Virus genome (UHGV): UHGV-1351772
DNA from: a virus
Length of the DNA: 64,000 bases
Strand: one strand, 5' to 3'
In this document: positions 35,087-41,682 of the stretch, in pieces
Position numbering within the stretch: position 1 is the first letter of the stretch
How the letters are laid out: each line of letters opens with the position of its first letter
Program-made: the position numbers and the translations under genes
Notes under the pieces: generated by a model
Seen by the model: only the letters and a program-made list of their open reading frames with translations
Told to the model about the DNA's origin: nothing
The model's database searches: none

Positions 35087-35566
35087 TTAAAATAATGGCA
35101 AGTTACGCCATTGTCCTACCGAGTAAAAAGCTTTTGGATGTTTACGGATATACGCTTTCGCTTCTTCTGGCAACCAACGGTCACCTACCAGTTTTTGTTG
35201 TGCAACAATTACTGCCATCAACAAATAAGGGTTTTTCGCACCGGGAAACTTTGCATTGGTTTCTAGCGCAATATCCAACATTGACGACCAGCCCAGTAAT
35301 TTATGCTGCGCCGGTAAACGTTCTTCAATATACATCAGCCAGTTCATGATTTGTTTAGGTTTATACGGACAGGTATAATTCGCCCAACACACCATGACGA
35401 ACTTAATAGCCTTCGCAATCACCCATACAGGGACAGTCACGAAAAGGCAGAAAATAGCCAACTGCGATGCGGGCGCTTCGACAAAAGTAATCGCCACAAG
35501 GACCATAAACAATTCAAGTACCACAAACCAAAAACGCGTTGGATAACGCCAAATGAACTTTATCAT
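35087..35566 (-). CDS. Membrane protein (two predicted N-terminal TM segments)
   Basis: 159 aa; FWFVVLELFMVLVAITFV and LAIFCLFVTVPVWVIAKAI. Confidence 0.45.
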   Translation of the reverse strand: MIKFIWRYPTRFWFVVLELFMVLVAITFVEAPASQLAIFCLFVTVPVWVIAKAIKFVMVCWANYTCPYKPKQIMNWLMYIEERLPAQHKLLGWSSMLDIALETNAKFPGAKNPYLLMAVIVAQQKLVGDRWLPEEAKAYIRKHPKAFYSVGQWRNLPLF

Positions 35567-35632: not shown

Positions 35633-36142
35633 TTAGAAGAACGGCTGATTTGGAATGACAGCGTACTCTAAAATGAACATGTGTTCTGGGGCGTCTTCTT
35701 TACGCCAGACCTTGTGTGTCGACACAAGTTTTTCCAGAATCGTTAGAAAACTACGCTGGCAGTATGTGTTTTCACCAAGCAGTAGATTTTGAAGTTCTAC
35801 AGTAGCGTCCATATACGCCTGTTTAAAGACTAAATTACGGTTATACTGCCCGGTAAAATTCCAAAGCAAGACTTTCCCTTCTTCGGTTTCTTTTACCGTT
35901 GGTCGTAAACCACAAATCCACAGTAAGGCAAGGTTGACGTTCCAGTCAAACTCTAAACCTTCTTCTTCGTCATCACCGAATGCTGTGGGTAAAGCATCGT
36001 AAAATTCGTGTTTCTCTGCGAATTCTTCATCCGACTTAATCTCGTCTTCGATACTGCTTCGGACGATACTGTAAACGTCTTTCGCGGTCAATTGTGCGGC
36101 TTTTGTAATGCCTTTATACCAATCGGTTACTACGATGCTCAA
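35633..36142 (-). CDS. Hypothetical protein
   Basis: 169-aa ORF. Confidence 0.45.
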   Translation of the reverse strand: MSIVVTDWYKGITKAAQLTAKDVYSIVRSSIEDEIKSDEEFAEKHEFYDALPTAFGDDEEEGLEFDWNVNLALLWICGLRPTVKETEEGKVLLWNFTGQYNRNLVFKQAYMDATVELQNLLLGENTYCQRSFLTILEKLVSTHKVWRKEDAPEHMFILEYAVIPNQPFF

Positions 36143-36864
36143 AGGGTAACTCCTCTATTGATTGGAAAACTCGTGTTTATCGTATCCCAAATTCTACTAA
36201 CTTCCGCCAGTTGAATCTGACGTGGTGTTTTCTTCGCAAACGCAAGCTGACGTGGGGCCGAGCCCACAACAACAGGCACATCGATTTTCGCGCTATAGAA
36301 CGCGGCGTCTTTCATAAAGCCTGCCATTTCTCGTTGTGCTGCTCGAGATTTGCTTTTGATTCGCGTGTGAGCGCCACTTTCACCCCAGTGGTAAGCTAAC
36401 GCAATTTCAGCCATGGTGGGCTTGCGTTTGAGTCGTTTGGTTAACCCCTTCTCAAGATGTTTAACATACGCGGCAGCCAGCAAAACAGCATTACGCGGAT
36501 TATATAAATCGGCGTTCTGACTAAGACCTAATTCTTTTCCATAAAGCCTTAGCAGATTACGCTTGGTACTTGGAAGCATCTGTACCAGGCTGTGTGCTCG
36601 TGAGCTTTTGTTGTAAGCCTTGGGATCAAAACGTGATTCGCGATAAATCAGCGTAATCATCAGCTTAGGATCAACGCCTTGCTTTCGTGAGATTTCCACA
36701 ATTAACGGGCTGACTTTTTCGAACCGATGTTGGATTTGTGCAAACTCACGCTGATGCTTAGAATGTGGCGTTGACGTTGACGCCTGTGCGTTAAACGCGA
36801 AAAGTGTTACCAGTAAAAGAAAGAAGATACGAAACATTTTGTTTCTCCAGTTGGATTTATACAT
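36139..36864 (-). CDS. Secreted lytic transglycosylase (SLT domain with signal peptide)
   Basis: 241 aa; signal peptide MFRIFFLLLVTLFAFNAQAS; SLT motif YRESRFDPKAYNKSSRAHSLVQMLPST and ALAYHWGESG. Confidence 0.65.
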   Translation of the reverse strand: MYKSNWRNKMFRIFFLLLVTLFAFNAQASTSTPHSKHQREFAQIQHRFEKVSPLIVEISRKQGVDPKLMITLIYRESRFDPKAYNKSSRAHSLVQMLPSTKRNLLRLYGKELGLSQNADLYNPRNAVLLAAAYVKHLEKGLTKRLKRKPTMAEIALAYHWGESGAHTRIKSKSRAAQREMAGFMKDAAFYSAKIDVPVVVGSAPRQLAFAKKTPRQIQLAEVSRIWDTINTSFPINRGVTL

Positions 36865-36937: not shown

Positions 36938-37498
36938 CTATTTAAAAGAGTTTGGAATTAATGACTCTGCTTCTTGATACAACTTATCAGGTAAGTATAA
37001 CGTGTAGCGTTGCCTCCTCGGTTCAAGTTTTTTGTAAAGCCACAAAAAGATTTCTTGTCTTTCCCAGGAATCTAACCACCCGTTTGCCATTCCAAGTGGA
37101 GGGATAGCAACGCTGGTATCCAGATCCTCAGCACAATCCGCCAGTGCGGTAATGCCCGCAGTAACATAAGAAACCTGGGACTTTAAGCGCCAATGGGTTT
37201 TCGTGGGGAGCAAGATACACTTTTCGTCAGAGTAAACGTAAACGTTTCCAATCTTAATTTCGTTTTCACGACACCGCTTACGATAATTCTGGTAAAGGTT
37301 GGGGTAGCGTTCACGACACGCGAGTGCAATGCCGCGACCCATCGCTCCTACGCAGTTAATGGTAACGACTTTATAGTCTTCGGGCGCATTAAAAAGATCG
37401 TTATCAATTTCAGATTCTTTACGTACCGTTAACATAACGAAACGCCCGGAGTTGATGTGTAGTATTAAAACGTGTACCGCCGATTGATAGCTCGACAA
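36938..37498 (-). CDS. Macro domain protein (TARG1/OARD1-like, Macro_2 type)
   Basis: DLFNAPEDYKVVTINCVGAMGRGIALACRERYP and VAIPPLGMANGWLD fit the TARG1-like macro-domain pattern; ORF-finder start is TTG, a more likely ATG is at about 37435. Confidence 0.5.
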   Translation of the reverse strand: MSSYQSAVHVLILHINSGRFVMLTVRKESEIDNDLFNAPEDYKVVTINCVGAMGRGIALACRERYPNLYQNYRKRCRENEIKIGNVYVYSDEKCILLPTKTHWRLKSQVSYVTAGITALADCAEDLDTSVAIPPLGMANGWLDSWERQEIFLWLYKKLEPRRQRYTLYLPDKLYQEAESLIPNSFK

Positions 37499-37522
37499 GT
37501 ATAGCGATATATGTTTTACCCA

Positions 37523-37891
37523 TTATCGATTTTTCGTAATCCATTGCTTGACCGCCGCTTCTAAACCCTCGTGTTGTAAGCCCAGGCGTTGCATAGTCAG
37601 TGCCAAGTTAAGCGTGTGTACGACCTGCTCACGGAACCGATGATCGTTCATACGGTCCCAGACCTTCTCTACTGAAATATTGTGTTTCCAGAGCAAATAA
37701 GCTTCACGACACGATGCACGACGAACTAAGCTAGGTTTAACAAAAGGCAACTCGATTTCAGGCAAGTAACCTAAAAGCTTAACTAACGGCGTTACTTGTG
37801 TCTTACCGAAGTCGCCACACTGATAACAAATTTGTAGAATATCAATTTCATTCAACGGTATACCGTAAATTGATGGGTTCTCTGTGAACAT
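37523..37891 (-). CDS. Hypothetical protein
   Basis: 122-aa ORF with GAGGAG ribosome-binding site. Confidence 0.45.
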   Translation of the reverse strand: MFTENPSIYGIPLNEIDILQICYQCGDFGKTQVTPLVKLLGYLPEIELPFVKPSLVRRASCREAYLLWKHNISVEKVWDRMNDHRFREQVVHTLNLALTMQRLGLQHEGLEAAVKQWITKNR

Positions 37892-38093
37892 TCATATTCT
37901 CCTCAGGCTCGAAATGTGTTTCGGGTGGCAACGTCCCTAAAGCCCCTTGGATACAAGCCGTCAGTGAAGGTTTGCCGAAACAGACCTTACCTATTGTCCC
38001 CACATTGGGATGCTGTAAGAACGCTTTCGCACGTTCGTATTCCTTCCAACAAATACTCGTATCCAAACCACCCACTCCGTACGATTTTAACAT
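37848..38093 (-). CDS. Hypothetical protein
   Basis: 81-aa ORF with AGGAGAG upstream; 44-nt overlap with the downstream gene. Confidence 0.35.
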   Translation of the reverse strand: MLKSYGVGGLDTSICWKEYERAKAFLQHPNVGTIGKVCFGKPSLTACIQGALGTLPPETHFEPEENMNVHREPINLRYTVE

Positions 38094-38159: not shown

Positions 38160-38609
38160 TTAGAATGTTTTGCTAAAATCGACCCACTCACGATCGCGTG
38201 AGTAAACCGCCTGATAGCCGCGTCGGATGAAATACTCTTTTGCTTCTTTACATTTCGCATACATGCCAGTAACAATCTCGCCGAAAACTTCATCAGCTGC
38301 AATTGCTTTGAAAATCTCTTTCATTACACCCCGTTGACGATAGTCTGGGAGCACGTATACCGAACGTATCTTAAGTGAACCGTTACGATTCCGATAACTA
38401 CAGTATCCTACCGCGACATCATCCTGATACACCAGAACTATGCAGTTACCTTCGATCAGCTGTCGCGCATTTAACTTCGGCACCGACGTTTTGATTTTCA
38501 GTAACGTGGCCTGGTGGTCTAAGTAACGGTAGTGTAGTTTGAGTAAATCGGCAGCTTGTCGCTCACCGACTTTAGAAGATGCGTTCAACAAATAAATTTC
38601 CATTTGCAA
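38160..38609 (-). CDS. GNAT-family N-acetyltransferase
   Basis: 149 aa; motif A-like IRSVYVLPDYRQRGVMKEIFKAI. Confidence 0.55.
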   Translation of the reverse strand: MQMEIYLLNASSKVGERQAADLLKLHYRYLDHQATLLKIKTSVPKLNARQLIEGNCIVLVYQDDVAVGYCSYRNRNGSLKIRSVYVLPDYRQRGVMKEIFKAIAADEVFGEIVTGMYAKCKEAKEYFIRRGYQAVYSRDREWVDFSKTF

Positions 38610-38635
38610 ACCTTAGAGACGCAAAAAAAGTAAAA

Positions 38636-38764
38636 TTAAAACCAACGCGCGATGACGAAAGCCGCAGCGGCTAATATGGCTGTGGTGATTATTAATCCAC
38701 CCCATGAAAGTTCCGCGTCGTATAGTGCGGATATCGCTACATTCGTAGCGTTTATCGTGGTCAT
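38636..38764 (-). CDS. Small hydrophobic peptide (42 aa, C-terminal TM)
   Basis: Hand-translated: MTTINATNVAISALYDAELSWGGLIITTAILAAAAFVIARWF; AGGAG upstream; below ORF-finder length cutoff. Confidence 0.35.
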   Translation of the reverse strand: MTTINATNVAISALYDAELSWGGLIITTAILAAAAFVIARWF

Positions 38765-38821
38765 TTTCTGCTCCTGTCAATACCCTCACACCGGAGGGTA
38801 TCTTCTGGATTATCTGGGTGG

Positions 38822-38920
38822 TTAATCTTCGAATGCCCAACGGTGACGTTTAATCAGCCAGTTTAAACCTTTACCAATTAACCACAACGAGCCAAGTGTT
38901 AACAGAACCCCTACAACCAT
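38822..38920 (-). CDS. Small hydrophobic peptide (32 aa, N-terminal TM, basic tail)
   Basis: Hand-translated: MVVGVLLTLGSLWLIGKGLNWLIKRHRWAFED; AGGAGAGGG upstream. Confidence 0.35.
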   Translation of the reverse strand: MVVGVLLTLGSLWLIGKGLNWLIKRHRWAFED

Positions 38921-38930
38921 ATTCCCTCTC

Positions 38931-39116
38931 CTAATTCCGCCATTCGCATTCGCGTTGACGCCAAATTGAACCCCACGATAGTTTAATCAGATAAGATGAA
39001 ACTACCCATAAAATCATCACCACACAAAACATGACATAAAGAACCGCTAGAATGGACATGAAGCCAAACCCTGCCGCATCCACAATATGACGGAACCAAT
39101 CAGTTTGCATAAACAA
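38931..39116 (-). CDS. Small membrane protein (61 aa)
   Basis: Hydrophobic core FGFMSILAVLYVMFCVVMILWVV; start overlaps the stop of the SbcC-like gene. Confidence 0.35.
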   Translation of the reverse strand: MFMQTDWFRHIVDAAGFGFMSILAVLYVMFCVVMILWVVSSYLIKLSWGSIWRQRECEWRN

Positions 39117-41604
39117 TTTTTACTCCTTCGTTATACACCGCAGGCAATGTCACCCCTTCCGGTTCGATGACACAGTACGATGCTTCATTAAGTTTAGAAT
39201 GAACCTCGGCTTCGTGGGAGACTACCAACAGTTGAGAAAATTCTCCCGAGTTTGCTAACGTTTTAATAAAGCCGACCAGGTTGTTACGGTGCTCCTCATC
39301 CATGCCTTCCGAAGGCTCATCCAAAAGCAATGGAAACTGATGCAACTTCAGCGCTTTGTACGCAGTCAGCCTGAACATCAGATTAAATATCGCACGCTGC
39401 GCCTTAGACCCTTTACGCACGTCAGGAACAGGCTCAGGATGCGTTTTTAGCTGGACAGGAAAAGTATAATCCAAATCGCCGTCAGTGAGGTCACAAGGCA
39501 TAACGCGCATGGGGTACGTCCAGACCTGTTCGATATAACGCGTCATTAACTCTGTGATTCTAACGATAGCGTTGTAAAAATACTTTCTAAGTACACCCTT
39601 TTCTGGAGAGAAGGCTTGAATCATCAGTTTGTTATTGAACTGCTGGGCTTGTAAGTCAGCAAGTTCGCGTTCCAAACTGTTGAGCTGATTCAATTCATTT
39701 TCCATCTGACGATAACGTTCGCGTGCGGTTGTAAAAGCATCCAGCTTCCCTTCTCGTGCACGTAAGAGTTCCTCGACGACCGTATTTGTCAACGTAACCT
39801 TAACATCACTCTCTAACCGTTCGAATAACGCACTGAAATCATCTACAGCACGTTTAACATTCACCAGATAGGTAAGTGTCGTGTTAGCCAGTTCGTGCTC
39901 TCTACGACGCATTGAGAGCATTTCTGTGGCTTTACCTAATCGTGACTGTTGGAAAGCGATTTTCTGTTGTAAAGCACCATCGACGTTACCAACGGCCGCC
40001 ACGGCATCCTGCCATTCTTTTTCCGCCTTCACTAACCGTTGTCGGGTTTCATGGTACTCAATAGCAGAGTACAACTCGCTGTCAAACGCTGCGCATAGAC
40101 TCCCGAACTGTTCACGTGATTCTGTGAAAACGTTACGTTCTTGCAAACGCTTAAAGAACATGCTCAATACCGGGTCCTTTGAATACGTCAGTACAATCTC
40201 ACGAACCTGCCGCATATAAGTTACATCAGATTCTAATTCAACACGATCGCGTAATAAGGTCTCTAACTGCGTTTGCAGTTCCGTGCGCTGCTGTTGTTGT
40301 CCGCGAATCGAAGACTCAAGTTCAGGTAAAGAACGCGTAACACCAGGCCGAAACTTAAACCGACACTGCGGGCAATCCACTTCCGCTGTTTCTAAGTAGT
40401 GATTACGTTCGTGATTTAAATTCTGTAAAACGTTCTCCACTCGCTGGAGTCTATCCCGCAACCCTGCGGTTTTTTGATCCATCACCAGAAGCCGTTCTTC
40501 CAAAACATTGAGTTTTTCAGTTGAATGAATTGCGTCCAGTGTTGTTCCTAACCGTTGCCCCCAGACACGCGCATCGGTAGCCGCACGAAGTTGGTCTAAA
40601 TTGACGTTGTCGTTAAATAGACCCGGAAAGAGATGCTCGGTGTCCCATTTGGTAAGTAACTCACGTAAACGCGCCAATGTATTCTTGAGACCTTCGTGAT
40701 TCCGCATCAGGTAGTCTTGTCGTGTCGATTCATCCATCAATAACGACAAGTCTTTATTCAACATCGATACCTCTGTTTCAGTAGACACGACAGCTTCGCG
40801 GGCCGTCGCTTCGTTTTGTCGCGCGGCCAGTATCTGTTCATCAGTAGGCAGTCCACCACGATGTTGTAATATTGCGTCGATGGTTGGGCCCAAGCTGTTT
40901 AATAACGCTTGGATTGTTTCGATGGTGACGGCACGATTTAATCCTGGCAACTGTTCGATTTCTCGGTTCAGTTCACGTAAATCCGATTCCAAACCTTTTA
41001 ATCTCGTCGCCAACTGCTGCCGTTCTTCCTCGTTCTCAATAACACGCGTCCGCAATTCGGCGATTTTACGGCTGGTGATTTCAATACCCCCATTTAAGGC
41101 AGTAAGGTTTTTACGTAAACGTTGATAAAACCCTAACGCGTAGGTGAGGTCAGAGGTACTTAAACGGTAAAACCACTTACGACGCAGTTCCGTTCCTGCA
41201 TCCGTTAAAAGCACTTCTCCGTTCAGTAGTTCTTTAATCTCTTTTGTAATGCCTGTGATTTCTTCAACACGGGAGTTGTAGACTTTCGCATTACCTTGCT
41301 CGACGATCTTTGCCCCCGTGGTCAAGTTCTCAATATCACAAACCAGTGAGTTCCCTTTACGGGCAACTTTGAATCGATAGCGTTGATCACCAACTAAACA
41401 GTAGTTCGTGTAAGAACCGCCGTCCCTGAATTCGGTTTTGGCCGGTGCTAAGGGTAAGAATACAGACAGTAGACTGGTTTTCCCGCAACCGTTTCCACCC
41501 AGGATAATTGTTGTTGGGGACTGGATAGTGAAATCGAATGTTTCAATTTCATGTAACCCCATCCCCGTAAAACCTTTGAGTATAATGCGTTCAACTTTTA
41601 GCAT
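39100..41604 (-). CDS. SbcC/Rad50-like ATPase (SMC-type, coiled-coil)
   Basis: Start set at MLKVERIILKGF with GGAGGTG upstream; Walker A ILGGNGCGKTSLL; long coiled-coil middle; Walker B/D-loop LLLDEPSEGMDEEHR and LLVVSHE. Confidence 0.65.
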   Translation of the reverse strand: MLKVERIILKGFTGMGLHEIETFDFTIQSPTTIILGGNGCGKTSLLSVFLPLAPAKTEFRDGGSYTNYCLVGDQRYRFKVARKGNSLVCDIENLTTGAKIVEQGNAKVYNSRVEEITGITKEIKELLNGEVLLTDAGTELRRKWFYRLSTSDLTYALGFYQRLRKNLTALNGGIEITSRKIAELRTRVIENEEERQQLATRLKGLESDLRELNREIEQLPGLNRAVTIETIQALLNSLGPTIDAILQHRGGLPTDEQILAARQNEATAREAVVSTETEVSMLNKDLSLLMDESTRQDYLMRNHEGLKNTLARLRELLTKWDTEHLFPGLFNDNVNLDQLRAATDARVWGQRLGTTLDAIHSTEKLNVLEERLLVMDQKTAGLRDRLQRVENVLQNLNHERNHYLETAEVDCPQCRFKFRPGVTRSLPELESSIRGQQQQRTELQTQLETLLRDRVELESDVTYMRQVREIVLTYSKDPVLSMFFKRLQERNVFTESREQFGSLCAAFDSELYSAIEYHETRQRLVKAEKEWQDAVAAVGNVDGALQQKIAFQQSRLGKATEMLSMRRREHELANTTLTYLVNVKRAVDDFSALFERLESDVKVTLTNTVVEELLRAREGKLDAFTTARERYRQMENELNQLNSLERELADLQAQQFNNKLMIQAFSPEKGVLRKYFYNAIVRITELMTRYIEQVWTYPMRVMPCDLTDGDLDYTFPVQLKTHPEPVPDVRKGSKAQRAIFNLMFRLTAYKALKLHQFPLLLDEPSEGMDEEHRNNLVGFIKTLANSGEFSQLLVVSHEAEVHSKLNEASYCVIEPEGVTLPAVYNEGVKIVYAN

Positions 41605-41630
41605 ACCCACCTCCATAAAGACGGAGTGTG

Positions 41631-41676
41631 GTGTAAAAAGAAAAAAATAAAGAAAGGGAGAACCCGAAGGTTCTCC
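41631..41676 (-). terminator. Intrinsic terminator (leftward)
   Basis: Stem GGGAGAACC / GGTTCTCCC, loop CGAA; long T-run on the minus strand. Confidence 0.7.
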
Positions 41677-41682
41677 CAAACG

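Follow-up and report, generated by a model that had tools for sequence, protein, structure and literature searches.

Three small genes, here called orfA, orfB and orfC, occupy the 480-bp gap between an SbcC-like gene and a GNAT acetyltransferase gene in the 64,000-nucleotide stretch of DNA analysed here (the window), and are almost certainly real membrane-protein genes. They are fresh members of known uncharacterised families, and the cassette to which they belong is lineage-specific, confined to SPN3US-like jumbo phages. A preliminary description had identified three consecutive minus-strand ORFs of 61, 32 and 42 aa, each with a Shine-Dalgarno sequence, and had placed a transmembrane (TM) segment centrally in orfA, N-terminally in orfB ahead of a basic tail KRHRWAFED, and C-terminally in orfC. 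All three co-directional ORFs are present, in the order orfA-orfB-orfC, and the hydropathy profiles agree with this placement: a central hydrophobic span at about residues 14-46 of orfA, an N-terminal one followed by the basic tail in orfB, and a C-terminal one at residues 19-42 of orfC.

The window comes from an SPN3US-like jumbo phage, with a locus match by blastn at ~70% identity; a megablast search with the locus gave no match in phages, in complete E. coli genomes or among PLSDB plasmids. The upstream gene of the operon (minus strand, 39100..41604) encodes an SbcC/Rad50-like SMC ATPase (Pfam SMC_N) of 834 aa, counted from the ATG common to its homologs, the ORF as listed reaching a TTG at 41679. 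This protein shares 58-71% identity with SPN3US gp186 and Asesino gp207, and SPN3US gp186 is essential (PMC5105663). The downstream boundary of the cassette is the GNAT gene (minus strand, 38160..38603; 147 aa from its ATG; Pfam Acetyltransf_1/7/10; phrog_3810), with a dN/dS of 0.05. No intergenic small ORF of the 64-kb window other than orfA and orfC combines a Shine-Dalgarno sequence with a strong TM segment, and orfB fell just below the threshold of the same scan.

The first of the three genes, orfA (minus strand, 38931..39116; 61 aa), begins with a TTG 17 nt ahead of the SbcC stop (position -16), and its Shine-Dalgarno sequence GGAG (39126..39123) lies 6 nt 5' of that codon. Both elements fall within the last SbcC codons, the Shine-Dalgarno sequence being embedded in the conserved NEGV codons. 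Because the start precedes the SbcC stop by so short a distance, the gene layout suggests that orfA may be translationally coupled to SbcC. Gene callers take an ATG at 39110, which gives a 59-aa product; the -16 start is found likewise in the relatives L001, L002 and L006, and in L002 and L006 the codon at this position is an ATG.

The product of orfA is orthologous to SPN3US gp187, already recorded in 2016 as a TM protein encoded behind the essential SbcC gene (PMC5105663). Its homologs, grouped in phrog_16515, include SPN3US gp187 (AEP84020.1), phiEaH2 G173_gp111, Stratton gp208 and SPAsTU MLDJOKPK_00253. These proteins of 59-66 aa share with orfA one long hydrophobic helix and the motifs Y..FC and CEWR (R.CEWR in orfA), and the SPN3US gp187 gene likewise overlaps the stop of its SbcC gene, but identity between orfA and the gp187 family is just 22-33%. 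A tblastn search with the bare peptide was underpowered (E 0.02). The match to phrog_16515 runs over the full length (E 1e-4), and profile searches recovered the phiEaH2, SPAsTU and SPFM homologs; the family alignment holds 31 clusters, every one on contigs of 220-250 kb. AlphaFold models orfA as a single helix (pLDDT 84). Around that helix, charges are distributed differently in the window clade and in the Seoulvirus gp187-type proteins, so that the topology of orfA is uncertain and may differ between the two.

The second gene, orfB (minus strand, 38822..38920; 32 aa, ATG start), begins 10 nt past the orfA stop, with the Shine-Dalgarno sequence GAGAGGGA immediately 5' of its ATG; in a relative of 88% identity the two genes instead share an ATGA overlap. 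orfB is a member of phrog_13448 (E 6.6e-14; residues 1-31 on profile positions 6-38 of 43), together with Stratton gp209, SPLA3_PHROGS00191, pEaSNUABM29_00245 and SPFM17_00186. Like orfB, these peptides of 32-46 aa have an N-terminal helix, in the middle of which a Lys/Arg is conserved, and then a basic tail with GWAF at its end (K..[GR]WAF when the window is included), and their gene is the second after SbcC; the window orfB differs in lacking the last 2-4 residues (G.T..). G4, L7, A29 and F30 are invariant in the family. An exhaustive search gave seven representatives, each of 34-46 aa, Machinavirus and Wellingtonvirus forms among them. Peptides of this type are encoded in 42 phage records, in several of which the CDS annotation is absent.

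The third gene, orfC (minus strand, 38636..38764; 42 aa, ATG start), has the Shine-Dalgarno sequence AGGAG (38775..38771) 6 nt 5' of its ATG. Its product has an acidic N-terminal stretch of 20 residues followed by a C-terminal TM helix with an RWF end, modelled by AlphaFold as a single helix (pLDDT 87). It is an ortholog of SPN3US gp189 (AEP84022.1) and pEaSNUABM29_00244, and SPAsTU MLDJOKPK_00250 is a further homolog. The gp189 family has the same build: its members, of 42-43 aa, open with the pattern MT..N..N....Y.....W and close with a TM helix whose last residues are W(L)F. Although tblastn with the bare orfC peptide, an underpowered search, found no match and a PHROG search found no family, profile searches recovered homologs at E values of 1e-14 to 1e-20. 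The family comprises 12 clusters, is alignable over its full length at 39-41% identity to the Seoulvirus members, and has M1, T2, N5, N8, Y15, W21, A35 and F42 invariant. Gene callers pick orfC, and a relative of 83% identity carries it as RefSeq WP_283666841.1.

Comparison with relatives gives evidence that these frames are coding. The three ORFs are intact in four IMG/VR relatives and open in all five clade members, and among five close relatives theirs are the only frames open throughout, with the single exception of a mirror frame antisense to orfC. Substitutions relative to the 88% relative fall 40/24/57 on the three codon positions, a third-position excess (chi-square p = 0.0012), and for the pooled small ORFs pS exceeds pN (0.55 against 0.24; Fisher p = 4e-8), the coding constraint for which the preliminary description had proposed a check. 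Estimates of dN/dS are 0.15-0.32 for orfA, 0.31-0.44 for orfB and 0.13-0.17 for orfC, with 0.32, 0.44 and 0.17 against the 88% relative. These substitution patterns show the three ORFs to be under purifying selection.

The alternative that the small ORFs arose by chance, in a region that is non-coding or that encodes either a 75-aa frame or an antisense 57-aa frame, is hardly credible and is refuted by the same comparative data. The 75-aa ORF (minus strand, 38613..38840, TTG start) overlaps orfC and the end of orfB in another frame, and is open in the window, L007 and L010. However, it has a stop codon in L008 and L009, its end differs in L007 and L010, its dN/dS against the 88% relative is 1.78, and it has neither a PHROG match nor homologs. 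As the preliminary description had noted, it also lacks a ribosome-binding site, there being no purine-rich site upstream, and it is not called as a gene in L024. The stop in the 88% relative and the dN/dS of 1.8 mark this frame as spurious: relatives keep the small ORFs and not the 75-aa frame, so that the refutation test which the preliminary description had set for itself was passed. The antisense frame over orfC (plus strand, 38652..38825) stays open throughout the five relatives at a dN/dS of 0.49, but this value is higher than the 0.17 of orfC, the frame has no Shine-Dalgarno sequence, and a mirror frame of this kind tends to remain open opposite a true gene. The small ORFs are, moreover, conserved across genera with invariant residues.

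We followed the families by synteny-anchored loci and profile searches, in place of tblastn with bare peptides, through six genera (Seoulvirus, Erskinevirus, Wellingtonvirus, Machinavirus, Derbicusvirus and the window clade). In all six, a small TM ORF starts between -16 and +10 relative to the SbcC stop and an orfB-like peptide comes second. orfA and orfB after SbcC thus form the conserved core of the cassette, while the small TM members C, D and E are gained and lost. In Seoulvirus the orfC homolog sits between genes D and E, whereas the window clade is without D and E; in Erskinevirus and Machinavirus the orfC homolog is absent. A motif search elsewhere in the window for cassette members D, E and F found none. 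Profile searches with the small ORFs returned solely proteins of 34-67 aa on phage contigs of 220-250 kb, the orfA, orfB and orfC families are absent outside the SPN3US-like lineage, and distant Chimalliviridae have no small TM gene 3' of SbcC. Public contigs on which the three genes occur number roughly 100-500.

The preliminary description had called the peptides unannotated. This is true of the orfB homolog in SPN3US (171588..171689 of that genome), and also of those in Proteus phage 7 and JN03, but it does not hold in general: SPN3US gp187 and gp189, Stratton gp208 and gp209, and pEaSNUABM29_00244 and 00245 are listed homologs, and many public records carry homologs as hypothetical proteins, with RefSeq WP_ accessions. 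Since relatives already list these genes as hypothetical proteins, the finding is correct yet ordinary. It does correct the gene map of the locus, in which three micro-protein genes replace one spurious 75-aa ORF, it defines a lineage-wide small membrane-protein cassette after SbcC with orfA and orfB as its core, and it draws attention to orfB-type genes that are still overlooked in reference genomes such as SPN3US.

As to function, the reading we favour is that orfA, orfB and orfC encode one-helix membrane micro-proteins of accessory character, which taken as a whole we put a little short of an even chance; the partner-binding role that it includes we hold slightly more tentatively. The three peptides would be translated from the SbcC operon mRNA, orfA by termination-reinitiation coupling to SbcC and orfC from its own Shine-Dalgarno sequence downstream of a conserved hairpin. 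In the host inner membrane, each would be inserted as one alpha-helix and act as a non-lytic accessory factor. Helix packing, together with short conserved tails, may then bind a membrane-protein partner; the candidate contacts are CEWR in orfA, K..GWAF in orfB and the N-terminal T/N/N/Y/W motif in orfC. The outcome would be an infected cell with altered envelope functions, in the style of exclusion or host takeover, rather than killing or the timing of lysis.

Several observations bear on this accessory reading. The peptide families have specific conserved residues outside the membrane helix, and the small ORFs accumulate amino-acid changes at 2-3 times the rate of SbcC or GNAT (pN 0.20-0.25 against 0.09). 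We count this fast change, the variable content of the cassette and the restriction of the families to one lineage in favour of accessory character. Small bacterial and phage regulators such as MgrB, AcrZ and the T4 Imm-type exclusion proteins sit in the membrane and bind larger proteins there. Our peptides resemble them in size class, in having one helix and in carrying short conserved motifs outside the membrane, which hint at a specific partner, but no sequence relationship was found and the likeness is one of functional analogy only. PADLOC defence-system models gave no match at E<=1, and the literature on toxicity screens, ASO functional genomics and small-protein reviews holds nothing on these genes. 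Profile searches against the PDB returned just chance TM-helix resemblances (e.g. HIV Vpu, E 0.2). Among the roles put forward in the preliminary description, an immunity, exclusion or other accessory membrane role is a candidate that is compatible with the data. It should be kept in mind that 'accessory partner-binding factor' is a broad class.

The two other roles proposed there, type I toxin and holin or antiholin, fare less well. That the peptides are type I toxins silenced by antisense RNA draws on their small size and hydrophobicity only, and on one sigma-70-like site antisense to orfA (38955..38982). Promoter-like sites at the locus are, however, at shuffle level (4 against 4.1), there is no Rfam antitoxin RNA at the locus at E<=1, and no match to Hok, Ldr, TisB, Ibs or other toxin families in Pfam or NCBIfam. 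The genes run in one direction within an operon marked by stop/start overlaps and strong Shine-Dalgarno sequences, and form a syntenic set conserved in lytic jumbo phages. We consider a toxin role exceedingly improbable.

A lysis role would make the peptides a holin/antiholin/pinholin-like set controlling the Sec-exported SLT 'putative endolysin' downstream on the same strand (minus strand, 36139..36864). The signal peptide of the SLT protein is cleavable, so that this enzyme would call for depolarisation of the membrane and not for a large hole, and its gene remains 3-5 kb downstream of SbcC across genera. T7 gp17.5 is a small single-TMD holin, and orfA resembles such proteins in size, in its one TM helix and in its charged C-terminal tail, with an exported endolysin downstream; side-by-side small TM proteins also recall holin/antiholin sets. 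The tails of orfA and orfB are charged, while orfC ends in the membrane, and the charge bias does not fix topology. Yet no holin was matched in Pfam, NCBIfam or the PHROG lysis categories at E<=1, and the endolysin gene is not adjacent: four genes (GNAT, an EF-Tu-like fragment, a 122-aa protein and Macro; 1.8 kb) intervene in the window, and eleven separate the peptides from SLT in SPN3US. Much nearer the endolysin, with its gene the second beyond SLT, is a 2-TM protein (35087..35566; SPN3US gp200), which makes the better-placed candidate. Unlike holins and pinholins of the gp17.5 type, orfB and orfC are much smaller, at 32 and 42 aa below the size of any holin known to us, and orfA appears coupled to a DNA-metabolism gene. 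We consider a lysis function quite unlikely.

The main rival to the accessory reading takes up this coupling. In it, orfA, and perhaps orfB too, would serve the essential SbcC/SbcD recombination nuclease (gp186 and gp27 in SPN3US) as a membrane tether or partner, produced in fixed ratio with SbcC through translational coupling. A link of SPN3US gp187 to SbcCD has already been suggested, by analogy with T4 gp46/gp47 and gp47.1 (PMC5105663). In all SPN3US-like genera examined, the start of orfA lies across the SbcC stop or right next to it, its Shine-Dalgarno sequence sits in SbcC codons that are themselves conserved, and a small TM protein holds the position even where sequence similarity is lost (Phobos, SNUABM_38). 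The constancy of this tight linkage could point to a specific SbcC-related role and not a general accessory one. On the other hand, tight packing is general in the cassette, and orfA evolves much faster than SbcC (22-33% against 52-71% identity across genera). The SbcC orthologs of phiKZ-like SL2, RAY, Goslar, EL, Noxifer, Aphrodite1 and RisingSun are without such a downstream gene. SPN3US-group phages are nucleus-forming (PMC10541120), and a phage nucleus would, by inference, keep DNA transactions away from the membrane. On balance we regard a tether as unlikely, if less so than a role in lysis.

T4 gp47.1 (NP_813808.1), a predicted membrane protein of 46 aa, is like orfA tiny and hydrophobic, and its gene overlaps a gene for an SbcCD-type nuclease subunit. 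The T4 gene, however, overlaps gene 47 (SbcD) from upstream, whereas orfA overlaps SbcC by 17 nt from downstream; gp47.1 has two hydrophobic segments, and we found no sequence or profile similarity between the two (hhalign probability 0.5%). The membrane-anchoring role of gp47.1 is itself a suggestion. It is tempting to speculate that orfA and orfB together make up a membrane module of two peptides, produced in fixed ratio with SbcC by translational coupling, that holds the SbcCD nuclease at the inner membrane or at the lipid early-infection vesicle of the nucleus-forming SPN3US-like phages, but we find this very doubtful. If such a module were real, DNA-end processing would be linked to a membrane compartment. 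The amber-mutant genetic system of SPN3US makes the roles of gp187, the orfB homolog and gp189 directly testable, with SbcC tethering, exclusion and lysis control as the candidates.

A further element of the locus lies between orfB and orfC, where a 9-bp stem-loop (minus strand, 38779..38802) has a folding energy of -16.7 kcal/mol (z -2.6). By alignment, the 88% relative has a hairpin in the same place with a different sequence, and the corresponding value in L008 is -25.7 kcal/mol (z -3.1). The terminator scan did not pick this hairpin and, as no U-run follows it, it is not a canonical intrinsic terminator; it may be a 3' end mark, an attenuator or an RNA-stability element.

Between the SMC/SbcC-like gene on the upstream flank (39100..41604, minus strand) and the GNAT gene on the downstream flank (38160..38603, minus) lie three consecutive small minus-strand ORFs: orfA (38931..39116, 61 aa, TTG start), orfB (38822..38920, 32 aa, ATG start) and orfC (38636..38764, 42 aa, ATG start). 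Each has a purine-rich Shine-Dalgarno site 5-7 nt ahead of it (GGAG at 39126..39123, GAGAGGGA at 38930..38923 and AGGAG at 38775..38771, respectively); the coordinates, lengths and ribosome binding sites proposed in the preliminary description are borne out. A scan of the whole 64-kb window that required of each small ORF a Shine-Dalgarno sequence, a strong transmembrane (TM) segment and limited overlap with longer ORFs returned orfA and orfC alone, with orfB slightly below threshold; the three therefore form a singular cluster in the window. The mechanically called SbcC ORF (39100..41679, minus) begins at a TTG and spans 859 aa, while all homologs start at the ATG at 41604 (MLKVERIILKGF, 834 aa).

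Each of the four close relatives found in IMG/VR (107-225 kb) retains intact copies of the three small ORFs; the SbcC proteins of these relatives are ~100% (L010), 99% (L007), 88% (L008) and 87% (L009) identical in amino acids to that of the window. Apart from the mirror antisense frame over orfC, no frame other than those proposed is free of stops in all five sequences. Nei-Gojobori dN/dS values for orfA, orfB and orfC were 0.32, 0.44 and 0.17 against L008, and 0.15, 0.36 and 0.13 against L007. Differences in the small ORFs are distributed 40/24/57 by codon position (p = 0.0012), and pooled pS is 0.55 vs a pN of 0.24 (p = 4e-8). With pN at 0.20-0.25, vs 0.09 in SbcC and GNAT, amino acids change two to three times faster in the small genes. 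The competing 75-aa ORF, which overlaps orfC in another frame (38613..38840, minus, TTG start), has no ribosome binding site upstream, as had been noted from the sequence. We reject this frame as a gene because it gains a stop in L008 and L009, ends differently in L007 and L010, has a dN/dS of 1.78, matches nothing in PHROG, and was not predicted by gene callers in a public contig whose orfC is identical. The preliminary description had named conservation of this frame, rather than of the small ORFs, as evidence against its gene model; the relatives keep the small ORFs, intact and constrained, and the model is right.

The orfA TTG lies 17 nt ahead of the SbcC stop, with its Shine-Dalgarno sequence inside the conserved NEGV codons of SbcC, and an ATG occupies the same -16 position in the Seoulvirus-type relatives L002 and L006. 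In the window, orfB starts 10 nt past the orfA stop; in L008 and L009 the two ORFs overlap as ATGA. A 9-bp hairpin (38779..38802, minus) stands between orfB and orfC, its position kept and its sequence changed in L008 and L009, and UGUUUU follows the hairpin in both.

While megablast of the phage collection gave no match, blastn at ~70% identity together with SbcC tblastn placed the window among the SPN3US-like jumbo phages (Seoulvirus, Erskinevirus, Wellingtonvirus, Machinavirus and Derbicusvirus). Homologs could be aligned for each small protein: orfA with Stratton gp208, phiEaH2 gp111, SPAsTU_00253 and SPN3US gp187, sharing the motifs Y..FC and R.CEWR; orfB with Stratton gp209, SPLA3_00191 and pEaSNUABM29_00245; and orfC with SPN3US gp189, pEaSNUABM29_00244 and SPAsTU_00250, the residues M1, T2, N5, N8, Y15, W21, A35 and F42 being invariant in its family. 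PHROG matches were found for orfA (phrog_16515, E 1e-4) and orfB (phrog_13448, E 6.6e-14), and when 1.84 billion representatives were searched exhaustively with an orfB HMM, seven proteins only were recovered, all 34-46 aa, including Machinavirus and Wellingtonvirus forms. Pfam domains and functional names are lacking for all three, and orfB homologs are present without annotation in SPN3US (171588..171689), Proteus phage 7 and JN03. The three are new members of known, uncharacterised phage families. Contrary to the earlier description, they are not unannotated in public databases, where homologs are already called as hypothetical proteins: those of the window clade carry WP_ accessions in drafts labelled Salmonella Chester, Shigella flexneri and E. 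coli. Although the clade (the window and L007-L010) was not found in INPHARED phage records (at megablast level), complete E. coli genomes or PLSDB, its small proteins (clusters P0004, P0042, P0047 and P0057) are present on 100-565 public contigs, the longest reaching 230 kb. The clade thus appears to represent an enterobacterial jumbo phage that is common yet undeposited and that may travel along with isolates.

The group-wide order after SbcC is A and B, optionally followed by D, C, E and F, and then GNAT, where A, B and C are the orfA, orfB and orfC families, D is a ~70-aa protein with two TM segments, a membrane-embedded Glu and the tail motif RDPAYDNRE, E is a 35-aa peptide with C-terminal ALTQGWF, and F is a soluble ~85-aa protein with the motif EDWRGNQ.RH. 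The window clade has A B C only, and no D, E or F motif was present in the rest of the window; Seoulvirus (SPN3US, SPLA3, SPAsTU) has A B D C E F, pEa_SNUABM_29 A B C E F, Erskinevirus A B D E F, and Machinavirus A B D-like E F. Wellingtonvirus and Derbicusvirus have a small TM ORF in A's place, a B-like peptide and unrelated insertions. Members D, E and F, conserved small genes missing from the window, were seen in the SbcC-GNAT gap of L001-L006 and L012-L016, several without annotation in individual records.

A small TM ORF starts at -16 to +10 of the SbcC stop in every SPN3US-like genus listed, and in Phobos it keeps this position though its sequence is unrecognisable. This constant coupling favors the idea that orfA is a partner of SbcC, perhaps tethering the SbcCD nuclease to the membrane in nucleus-forming phages. 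Thomas et al. 2016 (PMC5105663) showed SPN3US gp186 (SbcC) to be essential, described gp187 as a TM protein of 63 aa, and pointed to a suggestion that T4 gp47.1 anchors gp46/gp47. We nevertheless regard such a partnership as improbable, since no such gene follows SbcC in the more distant Chimalliviridae examined (phiKZ-like SL2, RAY, Goslar, EL, Noxifer, Aphrodite1 and RisingSun; SbcC ~23% identical), orfA evolves quickly, and SPN3US-like phages form a nucleus (PMC10541120). Moreover, T4 gp47.1 has no similarity to orfA, and its gene lies upstream of SbcD whereas orfA lies downstream of SbcC.

Kyte-Doolittle profiles agree with the TM placement first proposed: a central hydrophobic span of ~30 residues in orfA, an N-terminal span followed by KRHRWAFED in orfB, and a hydrophobic C-terminus in orfC after an acidic N-terminal 20 residues without any basic residue. 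A Lys or Arg in mid-stretch is conserved in orfB. AlphaFold models from the family alignments predict one continuous helix for orfA (pLDDT 84) and orfC (pLDDT 87). Charge bias predicts N-out/C-in for the window orfA and the opposite for its Seoulvirus homologs, so charge bias gives no reliable orfA topology. We tentatively favor accessory membrane factors, the default class for such proteins, because the families occur in a single lineage only, the genes evolve fast yet under constraint, cassette content varies, and conserved motifs lie outside the membrane helix.

The suggestion of type I toxins is rejected: the peptides match no toxin family, the locus has no Rfam RNA at E<=1, promoter-like sites are at chance level, and the genes sit in an operon. 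A lysis role as holin or antiholin, also suggested earlier, is possible but unlikely. No holin family matches, and the nearest peptidoglycan hydrolase, an SLT lytic transglycosylase (36139..36864, minus, 241 aa), is parted from orfC by four genes (GNAT, an EF-Tu-like fragment, a 122-aa protein and a Macro-domain protein); SPN3US has eleven genes between the cassette and the SLT ortholog. A better-placed holin or pinholin candidate is a protein of 159 aa that has two TM segments at its N-terminus (35087..35566, minus), two genes past SLT, with SPN3US gp200 (86 aa, 2 TM) in the same position. The SLT protein has a cleavable Sec-type signal peptide (MYKSNWRNKMFRIFFLLLVTLFAFNAQA|STS), as does its ortholog SPN3US gp198, a 'putative endolysin'; a predicted exported endolysin implies unusual lysis control in the SPN3US-like group. 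In SPN3US-like genera and in RAY the SLT gene keeps a downstream distance of 3-5 kb from SbcC, and in RisingSun it immediately follows SbcC.

An 81-aa ORF (37848..38093, minus) carries a degenerate G1-like motif of the EF-Tu type (HPNVGTIGKVCFGK) and seems to be a conserved fragment similar to the N-terminus of EF-Tu; its longer Machinavirus homologs, annotated 'putative elongation factor Tu/GTPase', keep HVNVGTIGHVDHSRS. The Macro-domain gene (PF01661; phrog_335; 36938..37498, minus) lies three genes from GNAT within one operon, and the two possibly work as a pair in handling ADP-ribose or acetyl groups. Between the 122-aa and Macro genes is a very small gene of 34-41 aa (MGKTYIAILVELSIGGTRF...; 37419..37544, minus; L024 1265..1369), which gene callers predict on a public contig and which can be recognised in L008 and L009.
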